Below are positions 326 to 17,940 of a stretch of 34,766 bases of DNA, piece after piece. Every line of letters starts with the position of its first letter. Positions within the stretch are counted from its first letter, which is position 1. Source of the stretch: Actinospica sp. (GTDB lineage: Bacteria; Actinomycetota; Actinomycetes; Streptomycetales; Catenulisporaceae); NCBI GenBank assembly GCA_035712985.1, contig DASTAE010000287.1, forward strand, positions 1 through 34,766. The letters are read 5' to 3'. The notes beneath the pieces are model-generated. The model was not told the origin of the DNA. It did no database searches and saw nothing but the letters and a program-made list of their open reading frames with translations. Both the position numbers and the translations under genes were made by a program.

Positions 326-1096
326 ATGTCCTCCACTGAGGAACACGACGCGCCCGACCTCCTTCGCCGCATGCTGTCGGCAAGGAACGGAGCATTGATC
401 TTCCTGGCTTTCGCGCTCGCGACCACGGTCGTCAGCGTGGGCATCACCGCCGTCTTGGCCAGCGTGTTCGGTCAGAATCTGGGCGACCGGATGGGCACGC
501 TCGGCCAGATCTTCGAATCGGTGAACGCTGCCTTCTCCGGCCTGGCATTCATCGCCCTCGTCGTCACCTTCAGACTCCAGTACGACGAGCTGAAATTGCA
601 GCGCGCCGAGTTGCAGAATCAGCACTTGGCCATGGATAAGAGCCAGGGCGAGCTTCACCGGAGCGCCGAGGCGGATATCCGCACGCTGCACATGCGATTG
701 ATTCAGATGTCGATGGACGACGAAGACCTGGCCGCCGTCTGGCCGCAGTACCAGGGTCCTGTTTCGCCGGTCCGCGCCAGGCAGCATAACTACTCGAACT
801 TAATCATCCAACATCAACGCATGTTGTACGAGCTCGGATATCTCGACCGGGAGGACGTTCTCGGAGTCCTGCGCTATCTGTTCACCAGCGCGCTCATGCG
901 GAGTTTCTGGGAAGGCCAGATGGTGGCGAGGCAGGTGATCAGGCTCGACGCGCGGGACGCCGCGTTCTACGAGATCGCCGACACCGCATTCCGTGACTCG
1001 GCGCCCCCCGAGCCCCCGACGCCGCCCCGCGGCAAGCGCGGGGCGGACGTGATCGACCTCGAGGTCCGCAGGAACTCCGGCTCAGACGCCGCGTGA
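326..1096 (+). CDS. Hypothetical membrane protein with two predicted TM helices near the N-terminus, then a coiled-coil-like Gln/Leu-rich segment and a cytoplasmic domain.
   Basis: 256-aa ORF. Hydrophobic stretches ALIFLAFALATTVVSVGITAVLASVF and AAFSGLAFIALVVTFRL. GAGGGGA Shine-Dalgarno about 12 nt upstream of the ATG. No recognisable catalytic motif. Confidence 0.55.
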   Translation: MSSTEEHDAPDLLRRMLSARNGALIFLAFALATTVVSVGITAVLASVFGQNLGDRMGTLGQIFESVNAAFSGLAFIALVVTFRLQYDELKLQRAELQNQHLAMDKSQGELHRSAEADIRTLHMRLIQMSMDDEDLAAVWPQYQGPVSPVRARQHNYSNLIIQHQRMLYELGYLDREDVLGVLRYLFTSALMRSFWEGQMVARQVIRLDARDAAFYEIADTAFRDSAPPEPPTPPRGKRGADVIDLEVRRNSGSDAA

Positions 1097-1342
1097 GAAG
1101 TGATCGATGGCGGAGAGCATGACGGCACGCGGGATCAGGACGAGTCGCTCGCTCGGCGAGTGTCCCGCGTCCGGCGGCAGGGCCATCACGCCGGTCACGT
1201 CCTGTCCGATAATCGCGAAATCTCCCGTATTCGTCTCGAACACGTCGGGGCAGTTCACGGAGTCGCCGCATCCACGCTCCGCGGGTGCCGTCCCCAAGCG
1301 CCGCGTAATCGCAGGCCCGGCCCCGTGTCGGGAGATTTCCAT
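1082..1342 (-). CDS. Small hypothetical protein (86 aa), no confident family assignment.
   Basis: ATG at 1342 preceded by GAGGAA 8 nt upstream, with an in-frame stop immediately 5' of that. Lies 94 nt downstream of the last ABC ATPase gene on the same strand. Its 3' end overlaps the convergent ORF 326-1096 by 15 nt. Confidence 0.45.
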   Translation of the reverse strand: MEISRHGAGPAITRRLGTAPAERGCGDSVNCPDVFETNTGDFAIIGQDVTGVMALPPDAGHSPSERLVLIPRAVMLSAIDHFSRGV

Positions 1343-1436
1343 CGGATAGTTTCCTCGTCTCTAGTGCAGGAAGTGACCGCAGAGATCGTACACAGTGGAC
1401 GGTGCGGGTTCGCAGCGACACGGCCCAACTGTGGCG

Positions 1437-2126
1437 CTACGACAACCCTTCCGTGAGCAAGCCGTCCGAGATCGTCAGGACTCGGTCGGCGATCTCCATG
1501 AGGGCTCGGTCGTGGGTGGCGATGAGGGCGGTGACGCCTTCGGAGTGGACGAGGGTGCGGAGCAGGAGCATGATCTGGGCGCCGGTCTGGGAGTCGAGTT
1601 GGCCGGTGGGCTCGTCGGCCAGCAGGAGGGTGGGCTTGGTGGCCAGGGCGCGGGCTATCGCCACGCGTTGCTGTTGGCCGCCGGAGAGCTCGTGGGCGCG
1701 CTGCTGCATGTGCTCGCCCAGGCCCACCAGGCGCAGCAGCGTCTTGGCGCGCTCCTCGCGTTGAGCGGAGGGGACCTTGAGGAGGCGGAGGGGGACGCCT
1801 ACGTTCTCGGTGGCGCTGAGGATGGGGATCAGGCCGAAGGATTGGAAGATGAAGGAGACCTTCTCGCGCCGCAGCTCCAGCAGTTGGGGCTGGGAGATCT
1901 TGTCCAGCTGCCTGCCCGCCACGGTGACGGTGCCCGCGGTGGGGCGGTCCAGGCCGCCCAGCAGGTTCAGCAGGGTGGTCTTGCCGGAGCCGGATCTGCC
2001 GCGCAGGACCACCAGTTCTCCGGCGCCGATCGTGAAGCTGACGCCGCGTAGGGCCTCGACCTTCGCGGTTCCGGTGCCGAAGCTGCGGCGCAGGTCGTCT
2101 GCGCGGACGATGGTGGTCTCGCTCAT
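1437..2126 (-). CDS. ABC transporter ATP-binding protein (MacB/LolD/FtsE-like, 229 aa).
   Basis: Walker A GRSGSGKTT, ABC signature LSGGQQQRVAIARAL, Walker B LLLADEPTGQLD, H-loop ATHD. GAGGAG Shine-Dalgarno 8 nt upstream. The ATG overlaps the stop of the upstream gene (ATGA at 2123-2126). Confidence 0.9.
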   Translation of the reverse strand: MSETTIVRADDLRRSFGTGTAKVEALRGVSFTIGAGELVVLRGRSGSGKTTLLNLLGGLDRPTAGTVTVAGRQLDKISQPQLLELRREKVSFIFQSFGLIPILSATENVGVPLRLLKVPSAQREERAKTLLRLVGLGEHMQQRAHELSGGQQQRVAIARALATKPTLLLADEPTGQLDSQTGAQIMLLLRTLVHSEGVTALIATHDRALMEIADRVLTISDGLLTEGLS

Positions 2127-3073
2127 CTCGTCGGCTCCTCGCGGTCCGCGCGTACGGTGATCTGTTCGGGTTCGAGGCCGAGGCGCACGCGGTCACGCAG
2201 GTCGAGTGCGGCGACGTATTCGGCGGGGAGTTGGATTCGGCCGGCGCGGTCCAGCAGCGCGTACTCCTGCGCGTTGGCCCGCTCGCCGAACTCGGTGCGC
2301 AGGACCTCGCTGCTGGTGCGGCCGTCGCGGATCTGGACGGTGCGCGGGACCTGGCTGGAGACGTTCTCGTCGTGGGTGACGATCAGGACCGCGACGCCGA
2401 GTTGCTCGTTGGCGGTGCGCAGGGCCTGGAAGACCGTGTCGGCCGACGCGGTGTCGAGTTCGCCGGTGGGTTCGTCGGCCAGGACCACCTTGGGGCGGTT
2501 CGCCAGGGCCACGCCGATGGCCACCCGCTGCTGCTCGCCGCCGGAGAGCTGGCCGGGGCGGCGGTCGGCGCAGTAGCCGATGCCGAGGAGTTCCAACAGC
2601 TCGTGGGCGCGCTTGCGGCGGGTGCCGCGGTTGACGCCGGCCAGGCGGAGCGGGGTCTCGATGTTCTCCCGGGCGTCCAGGTAGGGGAGCAGGTTGCGGC
2701 CGGTCTGCTGCCAGATGAAGCCGACGGTCTCGCGGCGATAGCGCAGGCGTTCGCGGCCCTTCATCGTGAGCAGGTCGTGGTCGGCGACCCGGGCCCTGCC
2801 CGCGGTGGGCCGGTCCAGGCCGGAGAGGATGTTGAGCAGGGTCGACTTGCCGGAACCCGAGGCGCCCACGATCGCGGTCAGCTCGCCGGGGCGGATGACG
2901 AGGTCCAGGCCCTGGAGCGCCTGCACCTCGACTCCGTCCGCCGCGTAGACGCGGACCAGCCGGTCGCACAGGATCAGCGCGTCGGCGCCGTACGCCGCGT
3001 GCGCCCGGGCCGCGGCCTCGGCCTCGAATTCCAGGCCGGCCAGGTCGGCGGCCGGTGCCTTCGCGTCGCTCAT
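2123..3073 (-). CDS. ABC transporter ATP-binding protein with a ~90-aa C-terminal extension (316 aa).
   Basis: Walker A GASGSGKST, signature LSGGEQQRVAIGVAL, Walker B VVLADEPTGELD, H-loop VTHD. The ATG at 3073 overlaps the stop of the upstream permease (ATGA). The N-terminal 270 aa of the 585-aa track ORF is Arg/Gly/Pro-rich out-of-gene read-through and is not called. Confidence 0.85.
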   Translation of the reverse strand: MSDAKAPAADLAGLEFEAEAAARAHAAYGADALILCDRLVRVYAADGVEVQALQGLDLVIRPGELTAIVGASGSGKSTLLNILSGLDRPTAGRARVADHDLLTMKGRERLRYRRETVGFIWQQTGRNLLPYLDARENIETPLRLAGVNRGTRRKRAHELLELLGIGYCADRRPGQLSGGEQQRVAIGVALANRPKVVLADEPTGELDTASADTVFQALRTANEQLGVAVLIVTHDENVSSQVPRTVQIRDGRTSSEVLRTEFGERANAQEYALLDRAGRIQLPAEYVAALDLRDRVRLGLEPEQITVRADREEPTR

Positions 3074-5685
3074 GCGTCCTCTCCCATCCTCAACTGCGCG
3101 GGAACACTGCGCCGCCGGGCGATCGCGGCCTGCAGCAGCACGCCGCAGCAGGTCAGCGCCAGGGCCGCGGCGGCGGTCAGCAGCGGGGTCACGGCGTCGA
3201 GCCGAAGGCCGGTCTCGGTGGCCAGGCCCGTGAACACGGTCAGATTCAGTGCGCTGCCGAAGACCGCGGGCAGCACGAGCGCGGCGAGCAGCCCGCCGAG
3301 GGTCGTGGCCGCGGCCAGCGGCGCGGTCTCGGCGAGCGCGATCCCGCGCGCCTGGCGCGGGCTCAGTCCCAAGGTGCCGAGCAGGGTCAGTCGGCGCGTT
3401 CGCGGAGCCGCGGTCAGCGCGAGGGCGAGCAGGATTCCGCAGATCCCGAAGCAGCCGGCCGCCGCGAGTCCGAGGACGTACCCGAACGCGGCCAGTCCGG
3501 CCAGCGGCTGCTTGGTGAGCCGGTCGAGGGCGTCGCCGCGGTACACGACGTGGTTCTGGCCGGGCACCGTGGCCGCCAGCGCCGCGTTCACCTTGGCCGG
3601 GTCGATTCCGTTGCCGGACACCAGGATCTCGGACACCAGCCAGAACTGCGCGGAGGATGCGACGGCCCACGTGGGGATGAGGACGAAGGGCTGGCCGGGA
3701 CCGTAGGCGGGCCGGGCCGGGCTCTGCGCTTGAACGGCCACGACCTTCGCCTCGAACGCGGGCGCCGCGCTCGGGGTGAGCTGGAAGGTCGAGCCGAGGG
3801 TGTATCCGCTGTCCGCGGAGGCGACCACCGGGACCGGGCCCGACACGCTCCGGGCGGGCAGCGCACCGGCGAGCGGCCACGGCGTGTCGGCCGAGACGCC
3901 GTCATATGTGCTCGGATCCACCGCGTACGCCGAGGCCTCGATGCCGGTGCCGTTGATCGACTGCGAGGCGACGGCCGTCGACGCGGTGACGCCCGGGACC
4001 CTGTCGAGCGCGGCGACCGCCTTTGCCGCGGCCGACGGCGCGGTGCCCGTGCTCAGCGCGATGGAGACGTCGGTTCCGGTCTGCAGCCAGGACTCCGTCT
4101 CGCGGCCGGACTCGATGTTGCGGTAGGCGAGTCCGCCGAGCGCGGCGAGCGTGAGCGCCAGGACGATCGCGAAGGTCGGCAGCGCGAGGTTGAGCGAGGA
4201 GCGGACCGCGCCGGACAGGCCGAGGAACGCGGTCGCGCCCTTGCGGCGTCGTGCGGCTCGCACGGCCGGGGCCAGTAGGAGCGGGGCGAAGCGCACGGCG
4301 ACAGCGGTGGTCACCGCGGCGACCAGGATCGGGGCCAGGGCGCCGAGCAGGTTCGAGCCCTGGCCGGTGCCTCCCAGGCCGCTCTGCCGCAGCAGGGCGA
4401 TGGTTCCGGCCGCCAGCAGGACGAGGATGAGCTCGAAGACGCGGCGGCGGGCCTTCGGGCGGCGGCGGATGTGGTCGTCGTCCCCGCGGAGGCGGGCGGC
4501 GCCGCGGTGTTCGAGGACTGCGAGCAGCGGGGGACCGCCGAGGACGATCAGCGCGACGCCGCCGTAGAGGGCCGCGGATTCCGTGTTCGCGCCCCGTGCG
4601 GCGACCGTGGCGACGGCGCCCGCCGCGACGAGGGCGATGAGCGTGAGCGGACCGAGCTCGCGGAGCACCTGGAGGGCCAGCTGCGTCAGCGACTGGCCGC
4701 GGGCTCGGAGCAGGGTGAAGTGGCCGCGGCGCCGGCTGACGACCAGGCGGGCGCAGAGCAGGATCGTCGCGCAGCCGACCGTCGCGACGCCGACCATGAT
4801 CAGGCTGAGGACGGAGTCGACCGCCGTGCGCTGCGACTGGAAGGTGTTGAGCGTGCTGGACGGCCCGGCCGTGACCTGCAGCATGAGTTGGGCGGCGGTG
4901 GTGCCGGAGCCGAACGCGGTCATCGCGTTCAGCAAGGAGCCGACGTCCGCCGCGGTGTAGGCGGCGGTGTCCAGCGGGACGCAGTAGACGGACAGGTCCG
5001 TGTCCGGGGTCCCGTTGGGGTTCTGCACCTCCGCGAGTTCCGACAGCTCGTCGGGGCCGACGAGCGCCGTGGTCGTCCAGAGGGTGCTTCCGTCCGGCTG
5101 GACGATCGGGGAGGGGGCCGCGAGGTCCGCGTCGTAGTTCCAGAACGCCGAGGCCGGATCGGTCGGCTCGACGATCCCGGTGACGTGGAACTGATAGTCC
5201 GCGGTGGAGATCACGGTGCCGACCCGCGCGCCGTAGAACTTCGCGTCGGTGGCGCTGAGCGCGATGTCGAAGGAGCCGGCGCCGGCCGAGTCGGGCAGCT
5301 TGCCGGCCAGCAGCTTCAAGTGCGAGCTCGGCGCGTCGCGGTACGCCAGGATCATCGCCGCCGTGAAGTTGTACGCGCCGACGACGGGCAGCCGCTTGCC
5401 GAGGCGGGCGCCGCCCCACGCCTGGCCGGTCAGCGGACGGGTCGCGGCGGGAGCCGCGTGCGCGAAGACGCCCAGCCCGCCGGACACCTCGGCGGCGGTC
5501 GACAGCTCAGGGCCCTGCGCGGTGAGCGCCAGGTCGACCGGGCCGGTGGCGCCCAGGGTCTGCTGGAGGGACTTCGTCAGCTGGTGTTGCACCAGGTCGG
5601 GCACGCCGGCCGCGAACAGCGCCGTCAGGAAGCTGAGGACGACCAGGAGGGTCAGGCCCGGGTAGCGGGAGCGTCGCTGCTTCAT
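3070..5685 (-). CDS. ABC transporter permease, FtsX/MacB family, with a duplicated FtsX-type 4-TM module and two large extracytoplasmic loops (871 aa).
   Basis: N-terminal TM helix, a ~250-aa loop and a 3-TM bundle, and this block occurs twice. Typical size and architecture for a YbbP-like double-FtsX permease. Its ATG at 5685 overlaps the stop of the upstream permease gene (ATGA). Confidence 0.85.
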   Translation of the reverse strand: MKQRRSRYPGLTLLVVLSFLTALFAAGVPDLVQHQLTKSLQQTLGATGPVDLALTAQGPELSTAAEVSGGLGVFAHAAPAATRPLTGQAWGGARLGKRLPVVGAYNFTAAMILAYRDAPSSHLKLLAGKLPDSAGAGSFDIALSATDAKFYGARVGTVISTADYQFHVTGIVEPTDPASAFWNYDADLAAPSPIVQPDGSTLWTTTALVGPDELSELAEVQNPNGTPDTDLSVYCVPLDTAAYTAADVGSLLNAMTAFGSGTTAAQLMLQVTAGPSSTLNTFQSQRTAVDSVLSLIMVGVATVGCATILLCARLVVSRRRGHFTLLRARGQSLTQLALQVLRELGPLTLIALVAAGAVATVAARGANTESAALYGGVALIVLGGPPLLAVLEHRGAARLRGDDDHIRRRPKARRRVFELILVLLAAGTIALLRQSGLGGTGQGSNLLGALAPILVAAVTTAVAVRFAPLLLAPAVRAARRRKGATAFLGLSGAVRSSLNLALPTFAIVLALTLAALGGLAYRNIESGRETESWLQTGTDVSIALSTGTAPSAAAKAVAALDRVPGVTASTAVASQSINGTGIEASAYAVDPSTYDGVSADTPWPLAGALPARSVSGPVPVVASADSGYTLGSTFQLTPSAAPAFEAKVVAVQAQSPARPAYGPGQPFVLIPTWAVASSAQFWLVSEILVSGNGIDPAKVNAALAATVPGQNHVVYRGDALDRLTKQPLAGLAAFGYVLGLAAAGCFGICGILLALALTAAPRTRRLTLLGTLGLSPRQARGIALAETAPLAAATTLGGLLAALVLPAVFGSALNLTVFTGLATETGLRLDAVTPLLTAAAALALTCCGVLLQAAIARRRSVPAQLRMGEDA

Positions 5686-8348
5686 CGGCCCGACTCCTCA
5701 CGCAGCACGGCGGCGGTCTCTCTGCGGCGCGCCCCGGCGAACGCGAAGGTGATCAGCGGCACGGCCAGCAGCGCCGCCACGCCGATCAGCACCTGCGGCC
5801 AGGGGGTCAGCACCGTGACCGGCGGCTGCGGTTCGGCCGCGGCCGAGGTCAGTGTGGCCACCGGGATCACCACCCTTCCGAGCAGGAGCCCGAGCGCGAC
5901 TCCGGCGAGCGCCCCGGGCCCGGCGAGCAGCGACTGTTCGAGGCAGAGCGTGCCGATCTTGCCGCGCCGGGAGAATCCGAGCGCGTCCAGCAGCGCGAAC
6001 TCCGCCGAGCGTTCGGACCCGGCGCTCAGGACGCTGACGATCAATCCGCACAGCGCGAGCAGGGTCGTCGCCAGGGCGACGGCGAGCAGCGCGCGCAGCG
6101 GCTCCTCGGCCAGGGGCGCCGTGCGCAGTTGCTGCTGGAGCTGCGAGCGGAAGGTCACGACGGCGCCGGACGGCAGGCCGCTGGGCGGCGCCGTCGAGGA
6201 GTCGGCGAGCCACGCCTCGTTCGTCGGCAGCTTCGCCGCGGCGTTGCTGACGATCAATCCGCCGCCCGGGGTCGAGACCGTCGGGAAGTCGGAGACGACG
6301 GCCACGATCTTGACGTTGAGCTGGCCCGCGCCGAGGGAGACGGTGGTCACCGCGCCGACGCCCAGGCTGAGCGTGTGCGCGAACGTCTGAGTCGCGATTG
6401 CGGGGATCGCGCCTCCGGAGTCCGGCGCGGCGGCCACCTCGCCCATCAGGGTGCTGAGCGGCACGGGGGAGAGGTCCGGGCGCAGGGTCACGGTGCGCGC
6501 GGCGCCCGCCGGGTCGACGGCCAGCAGCGTGGACTGCAGCGAACCGCTGGCCGAGATGAACGTGGACCGTGACAGCGATGTCACCGCGTGCACGCCCGGC
6601 GAAGCGGCCATCGCGGCCAGGCCGGGGGCGGTGAGGCTGCCCGCGGGGACGCGGACGTCGGCGTCGGCGCCGACCGTGAACGAGGCCTGATCCGCGGCGG
6701 AGCGCTCGGCGCTCGCGTACTCGCTGAGCGACAGGACGCCGGTGGCCACGGCCAGGGTGGTGAGCAGGACGGGGCCCGCGAGCTTCAGCGGCCTGCGTCC
6801 GGTCTGCCAGAACGCCAGCGGCAGCGCGAGGGAGCGGAAGCCGCGGGTCAGCTTGTCGCCGAGGCGCGCGGCCAGCGGCAGCAGGCGCAGGGCGAGGGCC
6901 GCGCCCGCCGCGAGGGCCAGCGCGGGCGCGGCGATCGCGACCGGGTCGTAGGTCGAGTCGCCGGACTGGTCGGTGCCGACGATCGAGTTCGAGGAGAACA
7001 TCTGCCAGCAGGCGAAGGCGGCCAGCGCGAGCAGCGCGACGTCGAATCCGGCGCGGCCCACGGCGGTGAGCGCCGCCTGCCTGCTGCGCCGCGTGCGCAG
7101 CGCGATCGGCGAGACCGCCGAGGTGAAGGCGGGGGCCAGGATCACCGCGATCGCGGCGATCGCGCAGCCGACGACCCCGGCCCACGCCGCGACCGGGACC
7201 CCCGTTCCGGTCGACAGGCCGCTCCGGCCGCTGATCGTGCCGGCCAGGGGGCTGGCGATGAAGGGGGCTGCGACGACGGCGGGCGCGGCGAGCATGACGG
7301 ATTCCATCGCGCGCGAGCGGACCAGTTGCGGGCCGGTGCCGCCGCGGGCCCAGAGCAGCGCCGCCTCGGTCTCGCGCGCGTCGGCCAGCAGCCGCACGAC
7401 GATCAGGAGCGCGGCGATCGCGACGACGAGCAGTTCGAGCAGTTCGGCGTAGACGAGCGACTGCGCGACCAGCGTCGCGGGCGCGAGGTTCGAGAGCAGT
7501 TCGGGCAGTTCGGTGGTCGCGCCGGGGTGGCCGAGCTCGTCGTCGGTGCCGAGGCCGGAGAGCACGGTGCGCAGCGCGTTCGCGTGCGTGGCCAGGTCGG
7601 TGTCGCCGATCGCGTCCGTGTCCGGGACGGCCACCCACTCCATCTGCTCGGCCGTCAGCGTTCCCTGCGCGAGATACGAGGCGTCGGTGAAGAAGGGGCC
7701 GACCATGGTCAGGCCGGTGCTCTGCTGGCTGCCCGCTCCGGCCAGCGGATCGAGCGCCCAGTACGAACCGGTCGGGTCGGTCGGGGTGAAGACGCCGCTG
7801 AGGACGAACGACGCGGTGGCGTTGTTGTCGGTCGTGCCGCTGATCCGGGCTCCGGGGGCGAGGCCGAGGGCCGTGGCCGCGGCCTGGTTCAGGGCGATCG
7901 GCACGGCACCGTCGACCATGCTCGTGCCCGGCCACGCGCCGGCGACGAGCTTCCCGTGCGTCGCGAGATCCTGGGGCGCGAGGAGCGTCGCCGACTTGTT
8001 GTTCGCCTGCGTCGATCCCGGCAGCGTCAGGTCGATCGCGGGTGCCGCGAACATTGTTACACGGGTGTTGCCCAAGGCACTGCTGAGTCGCCCGCGCACC
8101 TGTGCGGTCGCCTGGTCCGCGGGCATCGAAGGCGCCGCGCCGGACAGGGATATCGACGTGCCGCTCGCGGCCCGCAGCGCGCTGTGGATCGCGGCGTTCC
8201 CGGCCCGGCTGCTGTAGGTGAGCAGCGCGGCGGCGAACGCGGTCGTGAGCGCCACGGTCAGGACGACAGCGGCCAGCACGGTGCGGTGCAGCGCCATCCG
8301 GCGTAGCGCCAGCGGTACGCGTGACCGGCGCGCCGTGTGCACGCCCAT
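5682..8348 (-). CDS. Second ABC transporter permease, FtsX/MacB family, double-FtsX architecture (888 aa). First gene of the operon.
   Basis: Same architecture as 3070-5685. GGGAGGG Shine-Dalgarno immediately upstream of the ATG at 8348. A 120-bp divergent promoter region follows. Confidence 0.85.
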   Translation of the reverse strand: MGVHTARRSRVPLALRRMALHRTVLAAVVLTVALTTAFAAALLTYSSRAGNAAIHSALRAASGTSISLSGAAPSMPADQATAQVRGRLSSALGNTRVTMFAAPAIDLTLPGSTQANNKSATLLAPQDLATHGKLVAGAWPGTSMVDGAVPIALNQAAATALGLAPGARISGTTDNNATASFVLSGVFTPTDPTGSYWALDPLAGAGSQQSTGLTMVGPFFTDASYLAQGTLTAEQMEWVAVPDTDAIGDTDLATHANALRTVLSGLGTDDELGHPGATTELPELLSNLAPATLVAQSLVYAELLELLVVAIAALLIVVRLLADARETEAALLWARGGTGPQLVRSRAMESVMLAAPAVVAAPFIASPLAGTISGRSGLSTGTGVPVAAWAGVVGCAIAAIAVILAPAFTSAVSPIALRTRRSRQAALTAVGRAGFDVALLALAAFACWQMFSSNSIVGTDQSGDSTYDPVAIAAPALALAAGAALALRLLPLAARLGDKLTRGFRSLALPLAFWQTGRRPLKLAGPVLLTTLAVATGVLSLSEYASAERSAADQASFTVGADADVRVPAGSLTAPGLAAMAASPGVHAVTSLSRSTFISASGSLQSTLLAVDPAGAARTVTLRPDLSPVPLSTLMGEVAAAPDSGGAIPAIATQTFAHTLSLGVGAVTTVSLGAGQLNVKIVAVVSDFPTVSTPGGGLIVSNAAAKLPTNEAWLADSSTAPPSGLPSGAVVTFRSQLQQQLRTAPLAEEPLRALLAVALATTLLALCGLIVSVLSAGSERSAEFALLDALGFSRRGKIGTLCLEQSLLAGPGALAGVALGLLLGRVVIPVATLTSAAAEPQPPVTVLTPWPQVLIGVAALLAVPLITFAFAGARRRETAAVLREESGR

Positions 8349-8468
8349 ATGACCCTCCCGTGATTCAGCACCCGTAATGCACGACCTTCAGCCGGGCACC
8401 GTACACCGGAACCAGGGACTGTGCAGCATCCTATTCCGGCGCGGTAAGAGCCGCCGTCGGGGCATGGG

Positions 8469-9881
8469 ATGCTACCCGGCATGCGATTGAGCGCGCGGCC
8501 GACCGGCGGCGAACCGGGAGACCTCTCGCGGCCGACGGCGCTGCTGGTGGCCGGGGCCATGTTCATGGAACTGCTCGACGGCACGGCGCTGACCACGGCC
8601 GCGCCGCGGGTCGCCGCTGCCTTCGGCGTGGCGTCGGCCGCGATCGCCGTGCCGATCAGCGCGTACCTGATCACCGTCGCCGCGTTCATCCCGCTCGGCG
8701 GCTGGGCGGTGGACCGCTTCGGCGGGCGGCGGACGTTCGCGGCGGCGGTCACCCTGTTCACCGTGGCCTCGGCGCTGTGCGCGCTGGCGCCCGATCTGCC
8801 GCTGCTCGACCTGGCGCGGATCGCGCAGGGGGTCGGCGGCGCGATGATGGTCCCGGTCGGACGCCTCGTGGTGCTGCGCGGAATCCGGCGCGAGGAGGTG
8901 ATCCGCGCGGTCGCCTTCCTCACCTGGCCGGCGCTCGCGGCGCCGCTGCTGGGGCCGGTGCTCGGCGGACTGCTGGCCACGTACGCGTCCTGGCGCTGGA
9001 TCTTCCTGCTCAACGTCCCGCTCGGAGTGATCGCGCTCTGCCTCGTCCGCGCGATCCCCGCCGAGCGCGGCCCGGTCCGCCGCCTCGACGTGCCCGGCTG
9101 GTGGTGGACCGCCGTATGCCTCGGCAGCCTCACGGCGGGCGCGTCGATCGAGGCGATCCCCGGAGCCAGCGCCGCGGCCGCCGTCAGCTGCCTGATCATC
9201 GCCGTCGTCACCGGGGTCCTCGCCGTGCGACGGCTGCGGACGGCGCGGGAACCGCTGCTGCGCCTGGAGCCGCTGCGGATCCGCACCTTCCGCTTCGCCA
9301 ACGCGGGCGGCTCCGTCTTCCGCGTCGCCATCAACGCCGTGGCGTTCCTCGTGCCGCTGCTCTTCGTCGACTCCTTCGGCTGGACTCCTGCGCACGCGGG
9401 CGCGGCCTTCATCGCCCTCTACGCGGGGAACCTCGGCATCAAGCCGGCCACCACGCCGCTGCTCAAGCGCTTCGGCTTCCGCACGGTGGTAATAGGCGCG
9501 GTGCTGGGAGCCGTCGTCACCACCGCCCTCATCGCCACCCTGAGCGGGCGTACCCCGATTCTGCTGACGCTCGCGCTGCTGACGGCCAGCGGCTCCTTCC
9601 GCTCGATCGGCTTCACCGCCTACAACACCGTGACCTATGCCGACGTCCCGTCCGCCGACCTCAACGACGCCAACACCCTGTCGTCGGCGATCCAGCAGGT
9701 GGCCGTGGGCCTGGGAGCGGCGGCCGGGGCCCTGGCCATCCGCGCCTGCCTGGCGCTGGGAGTCCGCGACCCGTACCAGGGCGCCTTCCTCGTGGTGGCC
9801 GCCGCGCTCCTGATCCCCGCCCTCGAAGCGGCCCTCCTCCCACGCGACGTCGGCAGCGCGCTGACCGCCGCCTCGACCTGA
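8469..9881 (+). CDS. MFS transporter, DHA2 (EmrB/QacA-like, 14-TM) drug:H+ antiporter family.
   Basis: 470 aa. Multiple hydrophobic helices and the MFS motif G(x)3DRFGGRR after TM2. Divergent from the ABC operon. The start could alternatively be the ATG at 8481. Confidence 0.8.
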   Translation: MLPGMRLSARPTGGEPGDLSRPTALLVAGAMFMELLDGTALTTAAPRVAAAFGVASAAIAVPISAYLITVAAFIPLGGWAVDRFGGRRTFAAAVTLFTVASALCALAPDLPLLDLARIAQGVGGAMMVPVGRLVVLRGIRREEVIRAVAFLTWPALAAPLLGPVLGGLLATYASWRWIFLLNVPLGVIALCLVRAIPAERGPVRRLDVPGWWWTAVCLGSLTAGASIEAIPGASAAAAVSCLIIAVVTGVLAVRRLRTAREPLLRLEPLRIRTFRFANAGGSVFRVAINAVAFLVPLLFVDSFGWTPAHAGAAFIALYAGNLGIKPATTPLLKRFGFRTVVIGAVLGAVVTTALIATLSGRTPILLTLALLTASGSFRSIGFTAYNTVTYADVPSADLNDANTLSSAIQQVAVGLGAAAGALAIRACLALGVRDPYQGAFLVVAAALLIPALEAALLPRDVGSALTAAST

Positions 9882-9997: not shown

Positions 9998-12400
9998 ATG
10001 TCGGGATCGGAATCCGCGGGTGGGCACGTGGAGGATCCTCCGGAGGAAGTGGGCGCGCCGGAACCCGAGGACGAGGCTCCGGAGCGGACCGTCGAGCAGA
10101 CCGCCGAGGTCGAGGAGACGACCGAGGCCGAAGCCGATGCGGGCGAAGAGGAAGAGGCAGCCGACCCGGAGGCGACGGTGCAGGCCCCGGCCGATCTCGC
10201 TCCGACGGTCGAGGCCCCGGCCGACCCGGCTGCCACCGTCGAGGCTCCGGCTGATCTGGCGCCGACCGAGGTGACGGCGCTGGCGACGAGCGGGCCGGCG
10301 ACGCAGCCGGTGGTTCCGCAGCAGCCGCAGCCGCAACCGCAGCAGGGCTTTGCGCCGCCTTCGATGCTGCCGGCGCAGCAAGCGCAGGCTCAGTTCCCGA
10401 TGCAGGCGCAGCAGCCTCAGCAGTTCCCGCAGCAGCCGCAGCCCCAGTACCCGGGCCAGCCGATGCCGATGCCGCAGCCGCCGCAGCAGCAGGCGCCCTA
10501 TGGCTACCCGGCGTACGGGCAGATGCCCGCTCAGTACCAGTCGATGCCGCTGCCCCTGATGAACGCGCCGGTGGATGCGGCGGTCGCGAAGCGGAAGCAG
10601 CGGCGGCGGTTCATGGTGGTGGGCGCGGTCGTGGTGCTCGCGCTCGTCGGGACCGGGATGTACGTGCTGCTGTCCGGCCGCAGCGGCGACTCCGTGGTCT
10701 CGCAGGTCACGTGCCGGCCGGCCAACCTCTCCTCGTGCCTGATCAAGGCGCCCAGCGGCGCCGTTCAGCTGGCCGCCGCCGGCAGTGACAACTGGCCTTC
10801 GCTGACCACGGCCACCCCGGATCAGTACGCTGCGGACTTCGTGACCGGCGTCCAGGGCGTCGGGGAGGAGACGCAGGGGCTGCTCGCGCAGGACGAGCTC
10901 AAGTCGATCGTGCACAACGACTGGAACGCCGTCGACGGGAACAACGTCGACATCGTGCTCCTCGAGTTCGACACCCAGAAGGGCGCCCAGGACTGGAACG
11001 CCACGCGGGCGGCCGAGATTCTCGCCGAGTATCCGGGTACGAACACGCCGATTCCGGGCGACGCGACCGGCGCGGCGCACGCCGCGGTGAAGGCGGATTC
11101 GAAGGGGAACTTCGACGCCGCGTACACGGCCGTGGTCGGGCGGATGGTGCTCGACGTCGCCTACTCGAGTCCGAGCCAGCTGAGCACGCCGGACCTGCGG
11201 AACTGGGCCGGGACCGAGCTCGCCTCGCTGAAGACCGAGCCGGCTCCCGCGACCGACCCGGCGCCCAAGGCCCCGGGAACGCAGCAGGTGGCGTGCAACT
11301 CGGGCCTGCAGTCCTGCCTGATGTCGGTGCCGGGGGACGGTTCGGCGTGGACCAGCCCGTCGGATTCGAAGTGGGTCTCCGGCGCCTCGCTGACCACCTC
11401 TCAGTTCGTCAGCCTGTTCTGGGAGAACGAGTCCGCCTCGCAGCAACAGCAGGTGCTCTCGAACTTCACCGCGGACGGCGTGACCGGGATCGCGCACGAG
11501 GACTGGACCGTCAACAGCGGCTACGAGCAGGCCGACATCTACCTCATCCAGACCATCACGGCCGCCGGCGCCTCGGCGCTGGACACCAGCAACTTCGGCG
11601 AGCCGCAGTGGGGTGGCGGGCTCAGCGGCGTGAGTTACAACGTGCCGAACGCGTCGGGGACCCAGGCCTGGTACACGAACAAGCAGGACTCGAACGGCTT
11701 CACCGACTTCGCGTACACCACGAACGTCGGCAACGTGATCGTGATGGGCTGGTTCTACTACTACGGGTCCTTCGACTCGGGCACCACGAACAGCTGGGTG
11801 ACCCCGGAGCTCGACCGCGTCCAAGCCAGCGAGCAGACACTTCCGCTGGGGCTTCTGCCGCTGAACAAGCCCACGCTGCCGGCCGCGAGCCAGGGGACGT
11901 GCTCGGGCGACTGCCTGATCGGGCTGCCGGGGAACACCACGGACACGACCTCCTCCTCGTACCAGACCACCAAGGCCCTGACCGCCGCCGGATACGCGGA
12001 CCGGTATGAGACCACTGCGAGCGCCGACGTGAACACGTGGCTCATGTCGGACGGGTTCGTCTCCGGCGAGCACCGTTCGTGGTCGGCCTCGGGCGGCGCC
12101 ACGGCCGACGCGGTGCTGCTGAAGTACGGCACGCCGGCCCAGGCGCAGGCGGCGACGCTGTTCGACTACGGCGCCAACGCGGCGAACAACCGCGTGTGCA
12201 CCGATACCGCGGTTCCGGGGTCGTACTGCCTGGCCGCACCGGTCAGCGCCGACGACATGCTGCAGAAGGAGACCGTCCGCGTGTTGGCGTGGAAGGGCGA
12301 CTACGAGGTCAGCGTCAGTGTGACGACCTCCAACTCGGCCGACCTGGCGCAGGCCTACGGCTGGGCGCAGCAGCAGCTGAACAAGCTGCCCGCCAACTGA
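9998..12400 (+). CDS. Large membrane-anchored protein (800 aa). It has an acidic disordered N-terminus with 3x10-aa tandem repeats, a Pro/Gln-rich tract and a single TM helix, followed by three divergent tandem copies of an unrecognised ~190-aa extracytoplasmic module.
   Basis: ATG at 9998 with a GGTGGGGA RBS 8-16 nt upstream. TM segment FMVVGAVVVLALVGTGMYVLL. The repeats start with C-x(6,7)-[SD]CL (TCRPANLSSCL, ACNSGLQSCL, TCSGDCL) and share an H-x-[DS]-W...[DA][IV]-x-L[LI] core. The upstream 407 codons of the 1207-aa track ORF overlap the MFS gene in another frame and are not called. Confidence 0.7.
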   Translation: MSGSESAGGHVEDPPEEVGAPEPEDEAPERTVEQTAEVEETTEAEADAGEEEEAADPEATVQAPADLAPTVEAPADPAATVEAPADLAPTEVTALATSGPATQPVVPQQPQPQPQQGFAPPSMLPAQQAQAQFPMQAQQPQQFPQQPQPQYPGQPMPMPQPPQQQAPYGYPAYGQMPAQYQSMPLPLMNAPVDAAVAKRKQRRRFMVVGAVVVLALVGTGMYVLLSGRSGDSVVSQVTCRPANLSSCLIKAPSGAVQLAAAGSDNWPSLTTATPDQYAADFVTGVQGVGEETQGLLAQDELKSIVHNDWNAVDGNNVDIVLLEFDTQKGAQDWNATRAAEILAEYPGTNTPIPGDATGAAHAAVKADSKGNFDAAYTAVVGRMVLDVAYSSPSQLSTPDLRNWAGTELASLKTEPAPATDPAPKAPGTQQVACNSGLQSCLMSVPGDGSAWTSPSDSKWVSGASLTTSQFVSLFWENESASQQQQVLSNFTADGVTGIAHEDWTVNSGYEQADIYLIQTITAAGASALDTSNFGEPQWGGGLSGVSYNVPNASGTQAWYTNKQDSNGFTDFAYTTNVGNVIVMGWFYYYGSFDSGTTNSWVTPELDRVQASEQTLPLGLLPLNKPTLPAASQGTCSGDCLIGLPGNTTDTTSSSYQTTKALTAAGYADRYETTASADVNTWLMSDGFVSGEHRSWSASGGATADAVLLKYGTPAQAQAATLFDYGANAANNRVCTDTAVPGSYCLAAPVSADDMLQKETVRVLAWKGDYEVSVSVTTSNSADLAQAYGWAQQQLNKLPAN
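10175..10264 (+). repeat. Three imperfect 30-bp tandem DNA repeats encoding T-V-[QE]-A-P-A-D-[LP]-A-[PA].
   Basis: Units at 10175-10204, 10205-10234 and 10235-10264, read directly. They lie inside the acidic N-terminal region of the 9998-12400 gene. Confidence 0.7.
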
Positions 12401-16108: not shown

Positions 16109-16909
16109 TCAGCCCAATGCGACGGCGGCCTCGGCGGTCTGCGCGATGAAGGTCAGCGACTCCTGGAAGTACAGCCGCACGGTCTCCGCGTCGTGCGTCA
16201 GGTAGCCGATGGAGACGTCCTGGCCGAGGTGCAGCTCGAAGTCGCCGCCGCGGGTGCTGACCAGCAGGCCGGCGTCGATCGCGGGAGCCCAGACGATCTC
16301 GCCGCCGTCGCCGAGCATGCGGGTCAGGTGCTCGCGGATCGGGTAGCCGTGGTCGCTGGTCTCGGCCACGGCCGTGTATCCGTCGGCGGACAGCAGCAGG
16401 CTGTAGGGCCCTGCGACACCGGCGAGGCGCAGCGCGGTGAGCGCCTTCGCGAGGGCCGTCGGATACTCGCGGGGGTCCTCGGGAACGGTGATCGCCGCGT
16501 TCGATGCGGCCTGCCGGATGCCGGTGATCCCGGCCGCGGCGAAGCCGTCCACGATCGCGCGGTCCTCGGCGAAGGCCAGCTGCTTGGCGGCGTCCTTCAC
16601 CGGCTGCCAGTCCGCGTCCTTGGCGCCGCGCGCGACCGCGTCCACCGCGGACCGTCGCACGGTGAACGGCACCCGGAACCGCACGACGTTCGCCACCTCG
16701 TAGCAGCCCGCCTCCACGCCCGCGCTCGGCGCGTCCAGCGCGCGCAGATGCCCGGTGCCCACCGCCGCGAGGGTGAGCCCGGCCGGCCCGATCACGTCCA
16801 CGGCGCGGCGCGCGGCCACGTGCAGCTCGAAGGTGCGGCGCGCCTCGGCCTCGATGTCCGCCCAGGCCTCGTCGGCGATCGGGGCGAGTTCACGATGCAG
16901 GTTGTTCAC
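16109..16909 (-). CDS. enc: Family 1 encapsulin nanocompartment shell protein (linocin M18-like, HK97 fold), 266 aa.
   Basis: N-terminus MNNLHRELAPIADEAWADIEAEARRTF and overall length match family-1 encapsulins. The GTG start overlaps the stop of the upstream DyP gene (GTGA at 16906-16909). Confidence 0.9.
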   Translation of the reverse strand: MNNLHRELAPIADEAWADIEAEARRTFELHVAARRAVDVIGPAGLTLAAVGTGHLRALDAPSAGVEAGCYEVANVVRFRVPFTVRRSAVDAVARGAKDADWQPVKDAAKQLAFAEDRAIVDGFAAAGITGIRQAASNAAITVPEDPREYPTALAKALTALRLAGVAGPYSLLLSADGYTAVAETSDHGYPIREHLTRMLGDGGEIVWAPAIDAGLLVSTRGGDFELHLGQDVSIGYLTHDAETVRLYFQESLTFIAQTAEAAVALG

Positions 16910-17940
16910 GATGCCAGGCTCCTTCGCAGGCTTCCGATACCGAGCGAGCCGTCGTCGACGGTCGCGCTTTCGATCACGCTCACGGTTGCGTCTTCGGTGA
17001 TCGATTCCGGCGGATCCTCGAGGAATTCGGCGCTCGGGCAGAAGAACAGCGCGCCGGTCACGGCCGTCGAGAACTCGAGGATCCGATCCGTCCGGCCCGG
17101 CACGTCTCCGAGGAACATCCGCCGCAGCATCCGCTCGGTCACCTCGGGGCTCGCCGCGTAGCCGATGAAGTAGGTGCCGAACTCGCCCGAGCCGACCCGG
17201 CCGAAGGGCATGTTGTCGCGCACGATCTGCCGCTCGGTGCCGTCCTCGTCCACGATCGTGTTCAGCGCGACGTGCGAGTCGGCGGGCTTGACCGTGTCGT
17301 CGAGCTCGATGTCGTCCAGCTTCGTGCGCCCGATGATCCGCTCCTGCTGCTCGACCGGGAGCCGGTTCCAGGACTCCAGGTCGTGCAGGTACTTCTGCAC
17401 GATCACGTAGCTGCCGCCGGCGAAATCAGCGTCCAGCTCCGGGGTGACCAGCGCCGCCGCGAGCGCGGCCGGTCCCGTCGGATTCTCCGTCCCGTCCACG
17501 AACCCGAGCAGGTCCCGCTCGTCGAAGTACTTGAAGCCGTGCACCTCGTCGACCACCAGGACCGCCGGGCCCAGCTTCCGCACGAGCTGCCCGGCGAGCT
17601 CGAAGCACAGGTCCATCCGCCGCGCCCGGAGATGCAGGAGCAGGTCGCCGGGCGTGGCCGGAGCCGTGTGCCGCGGCCCCTCCAGCCGCTCGAAGGGATG
17701 CAGTTCGGCCGGACGCGCCCCCGGGAACAGCCGGTCCCAGGCGGCCGATCCGATCCCGGCGACGGCCGTCAGCCCGCCGTCCGGGATCCGGAAGCCGACC
17801 GAACGGACCAGCCCGGCCAGGTCGGCGAGCGTGTCCCGGACGGCGTCCTCGCCGCCCGGCTCGATCGTGGCCACCAGGAAGATCGCCGCCGCCGTGAGCG
17901 GGGTCAGCACCGGTTGCGGCTCGGGTGGGGTGGTCGCCAT
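16906..17940 (-). CDS. dyp: Dye-decolorizing (DyP-type) peroxidase with a C-terminal encapsulin targeting peptide, i.e. a cargo protein.
   Basis: DyP-type core (FGFVDGTENP, heme-binding region) and C-terminal ...DDGSLGIGSLRRSLAS matching the SxGIGSL[KR] encapsulin cargo-loading peptide. Translationally coupled to enc. Confidence 0.9.
   Translation of the reverse strand: MATTPPEPQPVLTPLTAAAIFLVATIEPGGEDAVRDTLADLAGLVRSVGFRIPDGGLTAVAGIGSAAWDRLFPGARPAELHPFERLEGPRHTAPATPGDLLLHLRARRMDLCFELAGQLVRKLGPAVLVVDEVHGFKYFDERDLLGFVDGTENPTGPAALAAALVTPELDADFAGGSYVIVQKYLHDLESWNRLPVEQQERIIGRTKLDDIELDDTVKPADSHVALNTIVDEDGTERQIVRDNMPFGRVGSGEFGTYFIGYAASPEVTERMLRRMFLGDVPGRTDRILEFSTAVTGALFFCPSAEFLEDPPESITEDATVSVIESATVDDGSLGIGSLRRSLAS

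Follow-up and report, generated by a model that had tools for sequence, protein, structure and literature searches.

Type VII ABC (ATP-binding cassette) systems, such as MacB, LolCDE, FtsEX, BceAB, and YbbAP, drive key processes of the cell envelope and antibiotic tolerance. To my knowledge, very few of them have been studied in Actinomycetota. In Escherichia coli YbbAP, the permease YbbP has 10 transmembrane (TM) helices, of which TM5-6 are a linker; Porter/Sabre domains sit at TM1-2 and at TM7-8, there are two coupling helices, and the stoichiometry is two YbbA to one YbbP (PMC12646458). Here I describe a four-gene ABC module on contig DASTAE010000287.1 of an Actinospica species. The whole stretch analysed, 34,766 nucleotides with a GC content of 72%, is called the window. 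The four genes lie on the minus strand and are named P1, P2, A1, and A2 in transcription order:

5682-8348, minus strand: P1, a YbbP-like permease of 888 aa (open reading frame (ORF) and translation)
3070-5685, minus strand: P2, a second 10-TM double-FtsX permease of 871 aa, a distant paralogue of P1 (ORF and translation)
2123-3073, minus strand: A1, an ABC ATPase of 316 aa in the MacB/LolD/FtsE group, with canonical motifs and N- and C-terminal extensions
1437-2126, minus strand: A2, an ABC ATPase of minimal length (229 aa) that has the canonical motifs and is proposed to form a heterodimer with A1

On balance, I am inclined to think that the four genes make up one self-contained type VII (MacB/FtsX-superfamily) ABC machine, in which an A1·A2 heterodimer would sit on each permease, and that this machine represents a conserved uncharacterised subtype. 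P1-P2-A1-A2 is a genuine four-gene operon. Adjacent genes overlap by ATGA at all three junctions (P1/P2, P2/A1, and A1/A2), and a GGAG-type ribosome-binding site stands on the 5′ side of each overlap. Since the four-base ATGA overlap is the usual operon junction in high-GC actinobacteria, the overlaps found here speak for an operon but are nothing unusual in themselves. The GC content at third codon positions is 0.92-0.94 in the four genes, and thus they are clearly coding. The gene coordinates and the three ATGA junctions of an initial annotation, which had been made from the sequence of the window, all check out, and its translationally coupled operon is upheld by the overlaps with their ribosome-binding sites. 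The annotation would have been undermined by a lack of such overlaps in relatives; four-base overlaps are present in the Actinospica-like loci described below, while outside these loci they give way to 1-base overlaps or short gaps.

P1 matches Pfam FtsX (PF02687) in two stretches with 45.4 bits (cut-off 25.5). A hydropathy scan gives about 10 TM helices in P1 and in P2, with large loops in both, of about 250 aa at TM1-2 and of about 200 aa at TM7-8. In P1, the outside domains span residues ~45-300 and ~545-750. The first outside domain of P2 has a weak match to MacB_PCD (E 0.03) and is related to that of P1 (28% identity over 252 aa, E 1e-8). Thus, the two double-FtsX giant permeases of the initial annotation are upheld by the P1 match and the 10-TM pattern of both proteins. 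The paralogy it had assigned to the two permeases and to the two ATPases is real but uneven, since P1 and P2 share only this 28% over 252 aa, compared with 45% for A1 and A2.

An AlphaFold2 model of P1 was built from 64 homologues, and all structural comparisons concern P1. The model has a mean predicted local distance difference test (pLDDT) score of 85 and a predicted template-modelling (pTM) score of 0.80, and its secondary structure fits the 10-TM layout. The top Foldseek match in the PDB is E. coli YbbP (9ge7_A), over the full length, with an E value of 9e-18 and template-modelling scores of 0.53/0.57. It is followed by BceB, LolC/LolE, MacB, HrtB, and YtrF. The outside domains of the model match the periplasmic domains of LolC/LolE (5udf and 6f49, template-modelling scores 0.51-0.58). 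A phmmer search of P1 against PDB sequences gave no match; the link to YbbP and LolC/E came only from profile and fold searches. NCBIfam has no model that matches P1 or P2.

Reading of the translations revealed that the coupling-helix motif R-x-x-x-x-x-LL-x-x-x-G is kept in all four FtsX halves, as RETEAALLWARGG (LLWARGG) and ERSAEFALLDALGF (LLDALGF) in P1 and as RRRGHFTLLRARGQ (LLRARGQ) and RTRRLTLLGTLGL (LLGTLGL) in P2. Because all four halves keep the motif, each permease should dock two ATPase domains, as in YbbA2-YbbP1 (PMC12646458). The initial annotation had envisaged a single complex of two permeases and two ATPases. This is unlikely, since each 10-TM permease is a pseudo-dimer and four coupling-helix motifs are kept.

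The FtsX domain of P1, the Porter/Sabre-like outside domains of its model, and ATPases of the MacB/LolD/FtsE subgroup are the features of a type VII ABC system. The module belongs to the type VII ABC superfamily, with the YbbP-type fused permease fold. It resembles YbbAP (PDB 9GE6-9GE8; PMC12646458) in the 10 TM helices, the internal pseudo-symmetry, the outside domains at TM1-2 and TM7-8, the two coupling helices, and the MacB/LolD-type ATPase. However, YbbAP has one permease and one homodimeric ATPase, whereas here there are two diverged permeases and two ATPases, which are fused in relatives. The sequence identity is only about 15%, and A1 has a MraZ/AbrB-like tail that is absent from YbbA. 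YbbAP has a TesA partner, while no gene for a TesA-like (SGNH) hydrolase lies in the window or is conserved in the related loci; such a partner may be encoded at another place. The host here is a Gram-positive actinobacterium, unlike that of E. coli YbbAP.

BceAB (PDB 7TCG and 8G3A) shares a 10-TM FtsX-type permease, two ATPase domains, and a Gram-positive host with the module, and BceB is the second-best structural match. In contrast to the two outside domains per permease seen here, BceB has one large outside domain (TM7-8); the BceA homodimer and the adjacent BceRS two-component system have no counterpart at this locus. LolCDE has two different FtsX-type permease subunits and MacB-family ATPases, and it extracts lipoproteins from the outer leaflet; extraction there is also the task proposed here. 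LolC and LolE, of 4 TM helices each, make up a single heterodimer that works with a LolD homodimer, whereas each permease here is a fused pseudo-dimer and the ATPase pair would be heteromeric. The defining features of BceAB, LolCDE, and FtsEX are absent from the module. Nothing in the module contradicts the current understanding of the type VII ABC superfamily.

Both A1 and A2 match Pfam ABC_tran, and their top NCBIfam matches are MacB, LolD, DevA, YbbA, and FtsE (E 1e-48 to 1e-65), all under the equivalog cut-offs. When unrelated Opp/Dpp ATPases are set aside, the top PDB sequence matches of A1 are MacB and LolD, with YbbA, BceA, and FtsE lower down. Residues 33-251 of A1 align with residues 6-222 of A2 (45% identity, E 1e-49), and the canonical Walker A/B, Q-loop, signature, and H-loop motifs are found in both. 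Two paralogous ATPases of the MacB/LolD type, as initially annotated, are thus confirmed. In the groove region that follows the Q-loop, A1 is two residues longer by a conserved insertion (WQQxxRNLLPYL, compared with FQSFGLIPIL in A2). This insertion suggests that A1 and A2 may read different (N-type and C-type) coupling helices. A PADLOC search gave only generic ABC-ATPase similarity, and a reading of the locus as a defence system was dropped on this ground.

The C-terminal extension of about 90 aa that had been annotated in A1 is actually split; compared with A2, A1 is longer by about 27 residues at the N-terminus and by about 60 (58-65) at the C-terminus. The latter part is as follows:

2126-2320, minus strand: C-terminal extension of A1 (residues ~252-316), a putative MraZ/AbrB-like half-domain with the motif LDRAGRIQLP...RVRL

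Of the 120 best A1 homologues, 117 have the tail motif EYA(L/V)LDRAGR(I/L)QLP...L.(L/M)RDRVRL...P(D/E)(H/Q)I.V. The profile search that the initial annotation had proposed for this extension gave a weak match to Pfam MraZ (16.9 bits, E 0.006, cut-off 23). Among the homologues, P0149 passes the cut-off with 26.5 bits and P0151 reaches 21.5 bits, and the JGI pipeline labels several fragments of the tail family as MraZ. A profile built from the tail gives a weak match to MraZ (PDB 1n0e, E 0.08), in register with its second repeat. With hhalign, the tail also aligned in register with MraZ and AbrB sequences, at a pairwise E value of about 0.002 and low probability. The tail thus resembles MraZ, AbrB, and MazE (SpoVT-AbrB) in the signature phi-D-x-x-G-R-phi-x-phi-P ... 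phi-x-phi. These domains are free-standing DNA-binding regulators or antitoxins, whereas the A1 tail is a single repeat on a membrane-associated ABC ATPase. I infer from sequence that the tail may be a MraZ/AbrB-like swapped-hairpin half-domain. When the tail profile was searched with HMMER against 1.84 billion representative proteins, 870 had an E value of 1e-3 or lower and 433 of 1e-10 or lower; many of the 870 are fragments at contig ends. The tail-bearing family is widespread but not huge.

Is this gene order common outside the window? A contig profile scan for P1, which used very specific patterns, gave four Actinospica loci, and the taxonomic breadth comes from metagenome contexts. In summary, the order P1-P2-A1-A2 was found in about 12 independent loci of Actinomycetota and of Anaerolineales-like contigs with 49% GC, with fused or separate ATPases. 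The P2 orthologue always comes next after P1. Actinospica acidithermotolerans, A. durhamensis, and two Actinospica metagenome-assembled genomes (MAGs) carry the module (loci L001/L009, L011, L007/L010, and L008), with permeases 65-72% and ATPases 83-93% identical to those of the window. A1, tail included, is 88-93% identical within Actinospica and 61-64% identical in Streptosporangiaceae and Streptomyces. Two more distant metagenome contigs have P1-P2-A1-A2 with P1 identities of 49-58%, and a Streptosporangiaceae locus has the same order with a P1 of 1115 aa that is 35% identical. P1 orthologues of 1070-1115 aa (P0033-P0120, from Streptosporangiaceae, Streptomyces, and Anaerolineales-like contigs) have an insertion of 170-210 aa in the second outside domain, after the position of residue 643 of the window P1; the insertion is absent from the Actinospica-clade proteins. 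No homologue of P1 was found by tblastn in 72,556 plasmids. A look-up of the exact P1 sequence gave no entry; an NCBI protein from a MAG of an Actinospica species is 100% identical to P1.

The module is conserved in at least two bacterial phyla. The layout had been called uncommon, and this does not hold, since the same order recurs from Actinospica to Streptosporangiaceae and the Anaerolineales-like contigs, with Streptomyces lacking A2. The initial annotation had also named, as its counter-case, a widely conserved operon with a known substrate; only half of this applies, since the conservation is indeed wide but no characterised member was found.

Some of the best A1 homologues are 517-552 aa long and contain two ABC_tran domains. 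In the alignment, these fusions consist of A1, the A1 tail, a variable linker, and A2 (P0140, P0147-P0155, and P0157), while P0237 has the reverse order, with A2 first and A1 with its tail at the very end. The fusion gene directly follows P1-P2 in an actinobacterial MAG of 72% GC (L012) and in two loci of 49% GC (L015 and L016), whose fusion groups with that of an Anaerolineales MAG (P0151). It also follows P1-P2 in L013, where P2 is apparently split. Because independent fusions exist in both orders, A1 and A2 are likely to act as one heterodimer, and the hetero-oligomeric ATPase proposed initially is favoured by these natural fusions. Some candidates were discarded: P0104, taken at first for a permease-ATPase fusion, is a frame-shifted assembly artefact, and P0156, P0159, P0152, and P0154 were rejected as real domain fusions, being frame-shifted artefacts with long out-of-frame stretches rich in Arg, Pro, and Gly.

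The fusions also bear on another explanation, in which a tandem duplication has produced two independent transporters with separate substrates; an A1 homodimer would serve P1 and an A2 homodimer P2, or the other way round. As a full pseudo-dimer, each 10-TM permease needs only two ATPase domains, as in YbbA2-YbbP1 (PMC12646458), and the two permeases are accompanied by two ATPases that both have canonical motifs. Moreover, a single MraZ/AbrB-like half-domain would dimerise most simply in an A1 homodimer. Yet many lineages have A1-A2 fusions, which occur in both orders, beside the same P1-P2 pair, the Streptomyces loci retain both permeases with A1 alone, and the order is P1-P2-A1-A2, never P-A-P-A, in every locus seen. 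Two separate transporters therefore seem doubtful.

Several observations weigh against one machine with an A1·A2 heterodimer. Streptomyces sp. NPDC093094 (L003/L004, 10001-16946) has P1-P2-A1 and no A2 within 10 kb, so A1 perhaps works as a homodimer. Catenulispora acidiphila DSM 44928 (L014, CP001700 1.99-2.01 Mb; 10001-11705) has an A1-A2 pair with no FtsX permease within 10 kb. P2 scores 20.4 bits against Pfam FtsX, under the cut-off of 25.5, although P2 orthologues carry recorded FtsX matches and P2 itself shows the same 10-TM pattern as P1. An AlphaFold2 model of a natural A1-A2 fusion has a pTM of 0.53 and does not resolve the geometry of the dimer, and its tail (residues 263-323) and linker have pLDDT values under 50, so that the swapped-hairpin fold is read from the sequence of the tail only. 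No literature was found on this subtype, on the guessed locus tags of Streptomyces coelicolor, or on AbrB-tailed ABC ATPases. Finally, the substrate class proposed below comes from analogy.

Two of these loci are of interest in themselves. In Streptomyces sp. NPDC093094, the module lies between a truncated-globin gene and a region with ABC-F (two ABC_tran and one ABC_tran_Xtn) and SSB genes, which looks like core genome. The A1-like ATPase of C. acidiphila is 67% identical to A1 and has the MraZ-like tail; the pair adjoins a gene for a 252-aa soluble-looking protein and lies near hrdB and topoisomerase genes.

If the four genes do form one machine, P1 and P2 would each act in it as a pseudo-dimeric permease of the YbbP-like kind, in which 10 TM helices are combined with two outside domains of the Porter/Sabre type and a pair of coupling helices. 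A1 and A2 would pair into a heterodimeric ATPase with two canonical ATP sites, and one A1·A2 heterodimer would dock on each permease, giving P1·A1·A2 and P2·A1·A2. The binding and hydrolysis of ATP on the cytoplasmic side would be relayed through the long TM helices to the outside domains. By analogy with the superfamily, such mechanotransmission may work without a transmembrane substrate channel. The likely task of the machine is to extract molecules of hydrophobic or amphiphilic nature, for example lipids, lipid-linked compounds, or membrane-active antimicrobials, from the outer leaflet or the envelope. A hydrophobic or amphiphilic molecule is the most likely substrate class, to judge from YbbAP, LolCDE, BceAB, and HrtBA.

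The A1 tail may pair with a second A1, which would join a P1 unit and a P2 unit as twins; alternatively, it may serve as a regulatory module. A lone MraZ/AbrB repeat cannot close a barrel. Thus, if A1 pairs with A2, the partner of the tail must come from another complex. A twin of a P1 unit and a P2 unit would explain why the two permeases always stay together. A more elaborate version, in which the two units are coupled by a swapped-hairpin barrel of A1 tails and the permeases alternate or hand the substrate over, or in which the tail binds DNA or a regulator and reports activity to expression, is a speculation to which I give little credence.

The flanks of the module differ in each of the roughly 12 loci, and no adaptor, lipoprotein, hydrolase, regulator, or biosynthetic gene recurs as a neighbour across them. 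In a contig of JGI sample 3300056388, genes for a GH25 muramidase, GH3, NamZ, a beta-lactamase-fold protein, and a MurR/RpiR-like regulator lie upstream of P1. These peptidoglycan-recycling-type genes are a hint of a link to the cell wall, at a single locus.

Such genes raise the question of whether the module is no strict transporter but rather an FtsEX-like mechanotransducer, whose outside domains, moved by ATP, would activate a cell-wall hydrolase or some other partner outside the cell, or would report stress of the envelope. FtsEX belongs to the same superfamily and would share the principle of mechanotransmission, the muramidase, NamZ, GH3, and MurR-like genes stand just upstream of P1 in one related contig, and Amidase_3 genes are found 12 kb off in the window and 5 kb off in L007. 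However, neither a hydrolase gene nor a partner gene lies next to the module consistently, the module is linked to no kinase or regulator, and the outside domains are of the YbbP/LolC-like Porter/Sabre type, not the small extracellular domain of FtsX. I consider this role improbable for the module.

The initial annotation had linked such layouts to peptide or lipid export or to self-immunity. A dedicated exporter or immunity pump for a locally encoded natural product is the weakest of the alternatives and can be given hardly any weight. FtsX/MacB-type pumps do serve lantibiotic and bacteriocin immunity elsewhere, and the two ATPases match the NCBIfam models of bacteriocin and darobactin exporters, under the cut-off. 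On the other hand, the operon has no gene for biosynthesis, a precursor, modification, or a regulator in its vicinity in the window, and PADLOC gives only generic ATPase similarity. No small ORF is conserved in the roughly 12 loci with their varying flanks, and the module spans phyla and lies among housekeeping genes in some genomes. No biosynthetic cluster, histidine kinase, or response regulator was found in the window. The absence of a visible regulator or precursor-peptide gene, noted initially, holds within about 10 kb of the operon; a large LuxR-type regulator lies at 26.9 kb of the window. Self-immunity or peptide export thus finds no support in the flanks or in the window. Rather, the module probably has a housekeeping function in the envelope and is not the export arm of a biosynthetic cluster.

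Taken as a single machine, the module would be a widespread envelope system rather than a rare self-immunity pump. It appears as a conserved self-contained subtype with two permeases that lack a curated family model, a proposed heterodimeric ATPase, and an unusual tail, and it is a well-delimited target for structural and genetic work.

Upstream of P1, a short conserved element was found:

8389-8409, minus strand: CCGGTGTACGGTGCCCGGCTG, 21 nt, 41-61 nt before the P1 start codon

The element is unique in the window, with 0 occurrences expected by chance. It is identical in L008 and has one mismatch in L007, although the genes further upstream differ. A. acidithermotolerans and A. durhamensis have another upstream element, which is common to those two species. 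A leader-peptide reading was dropped, as the reading frames differ between relatives. Because the frames across the element are not conserved, it should be a DNA or RNA signal, and it is probably part of a promoter or operator. No Rfam family matches the element, and scans of both intergenic regions for promoters, terminators, and inverted repeats were empty.

Three genes flank the operon in the window:

1082-1342, minus strand: ORF of 86 aa, starting 94 nt after A2, with a GAGGAA site upstream
326-1096, plus strand: DUF6082 gene for a 2-TM protein, converging on the 86-aa ORF with a 15-bp overlap
8469-9881, divergent from P1: major facilitator superfamily (MFS) gene, matching MFS_1, with MdtD/EmrB (DHA2) as the best NCBIfam models, under the cut-off

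The 86-aa ORF has its own ribosome-binding site, as initially annotated, at the GAGGAA site. Its homologue in L007 is 78% identical, and the differences (14, 6, and 23 at the first, second, and third codon positions) are biased to the third position, so it is a real gene. It has no match in Pfam, NCBIfam, or PADLOC. In the region upstream of this gene, a CACTGTGTA motif is conserved. The converging two-TM membrane protein is likewise confirmed, as a DUF6082 protein, for which NCBIfam has no model. For the divergent gene, membership in the MFS stands, while the DHA2 assignment comes from matches under the cut-off. The pair of DUF6082 and 86-aa genes was found only in the window and in L007/L010; three further Actinospica genomes do not have it downstream of the module. 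The region 326-1342 is a patch of lower GC content (0.63, compared with about 0.72 elsewhere). No relative has the divergent MFS gene as a neighbour of the module. Thus, the 86-aa ORF, the DUF6082 gene, and the MFS gene lie outside the module, and a synteny comparison, which had been suggested as a check, shows that they do not travel with the four genes.

Elsewhere in the window there are genes for a P/Q-rich protein with a membrane anchor, another MFS protein, an aquaporin, an NAD kinase, an amidase, an encapsulin-DyP pair, a TldD/PmbA protein, a flavin reductase, and a CBM5/12 protein. Two of these features are given in detail:

9998-12400, plus strand: protein of 800 aa with a single TM helix and a large outside part that contains Cys; its N-terminus is acidic, a long region is rich in P and Q, and it has no Pfam match
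16109-17940, minus strand: encapsulin (Linocin_M18) and DyP-type peroxidase genes, which overlap, with the encapsulin directly downstream

An encapsulin and a DyP-type peroxidase are a classic nanocompartment cargo pair.

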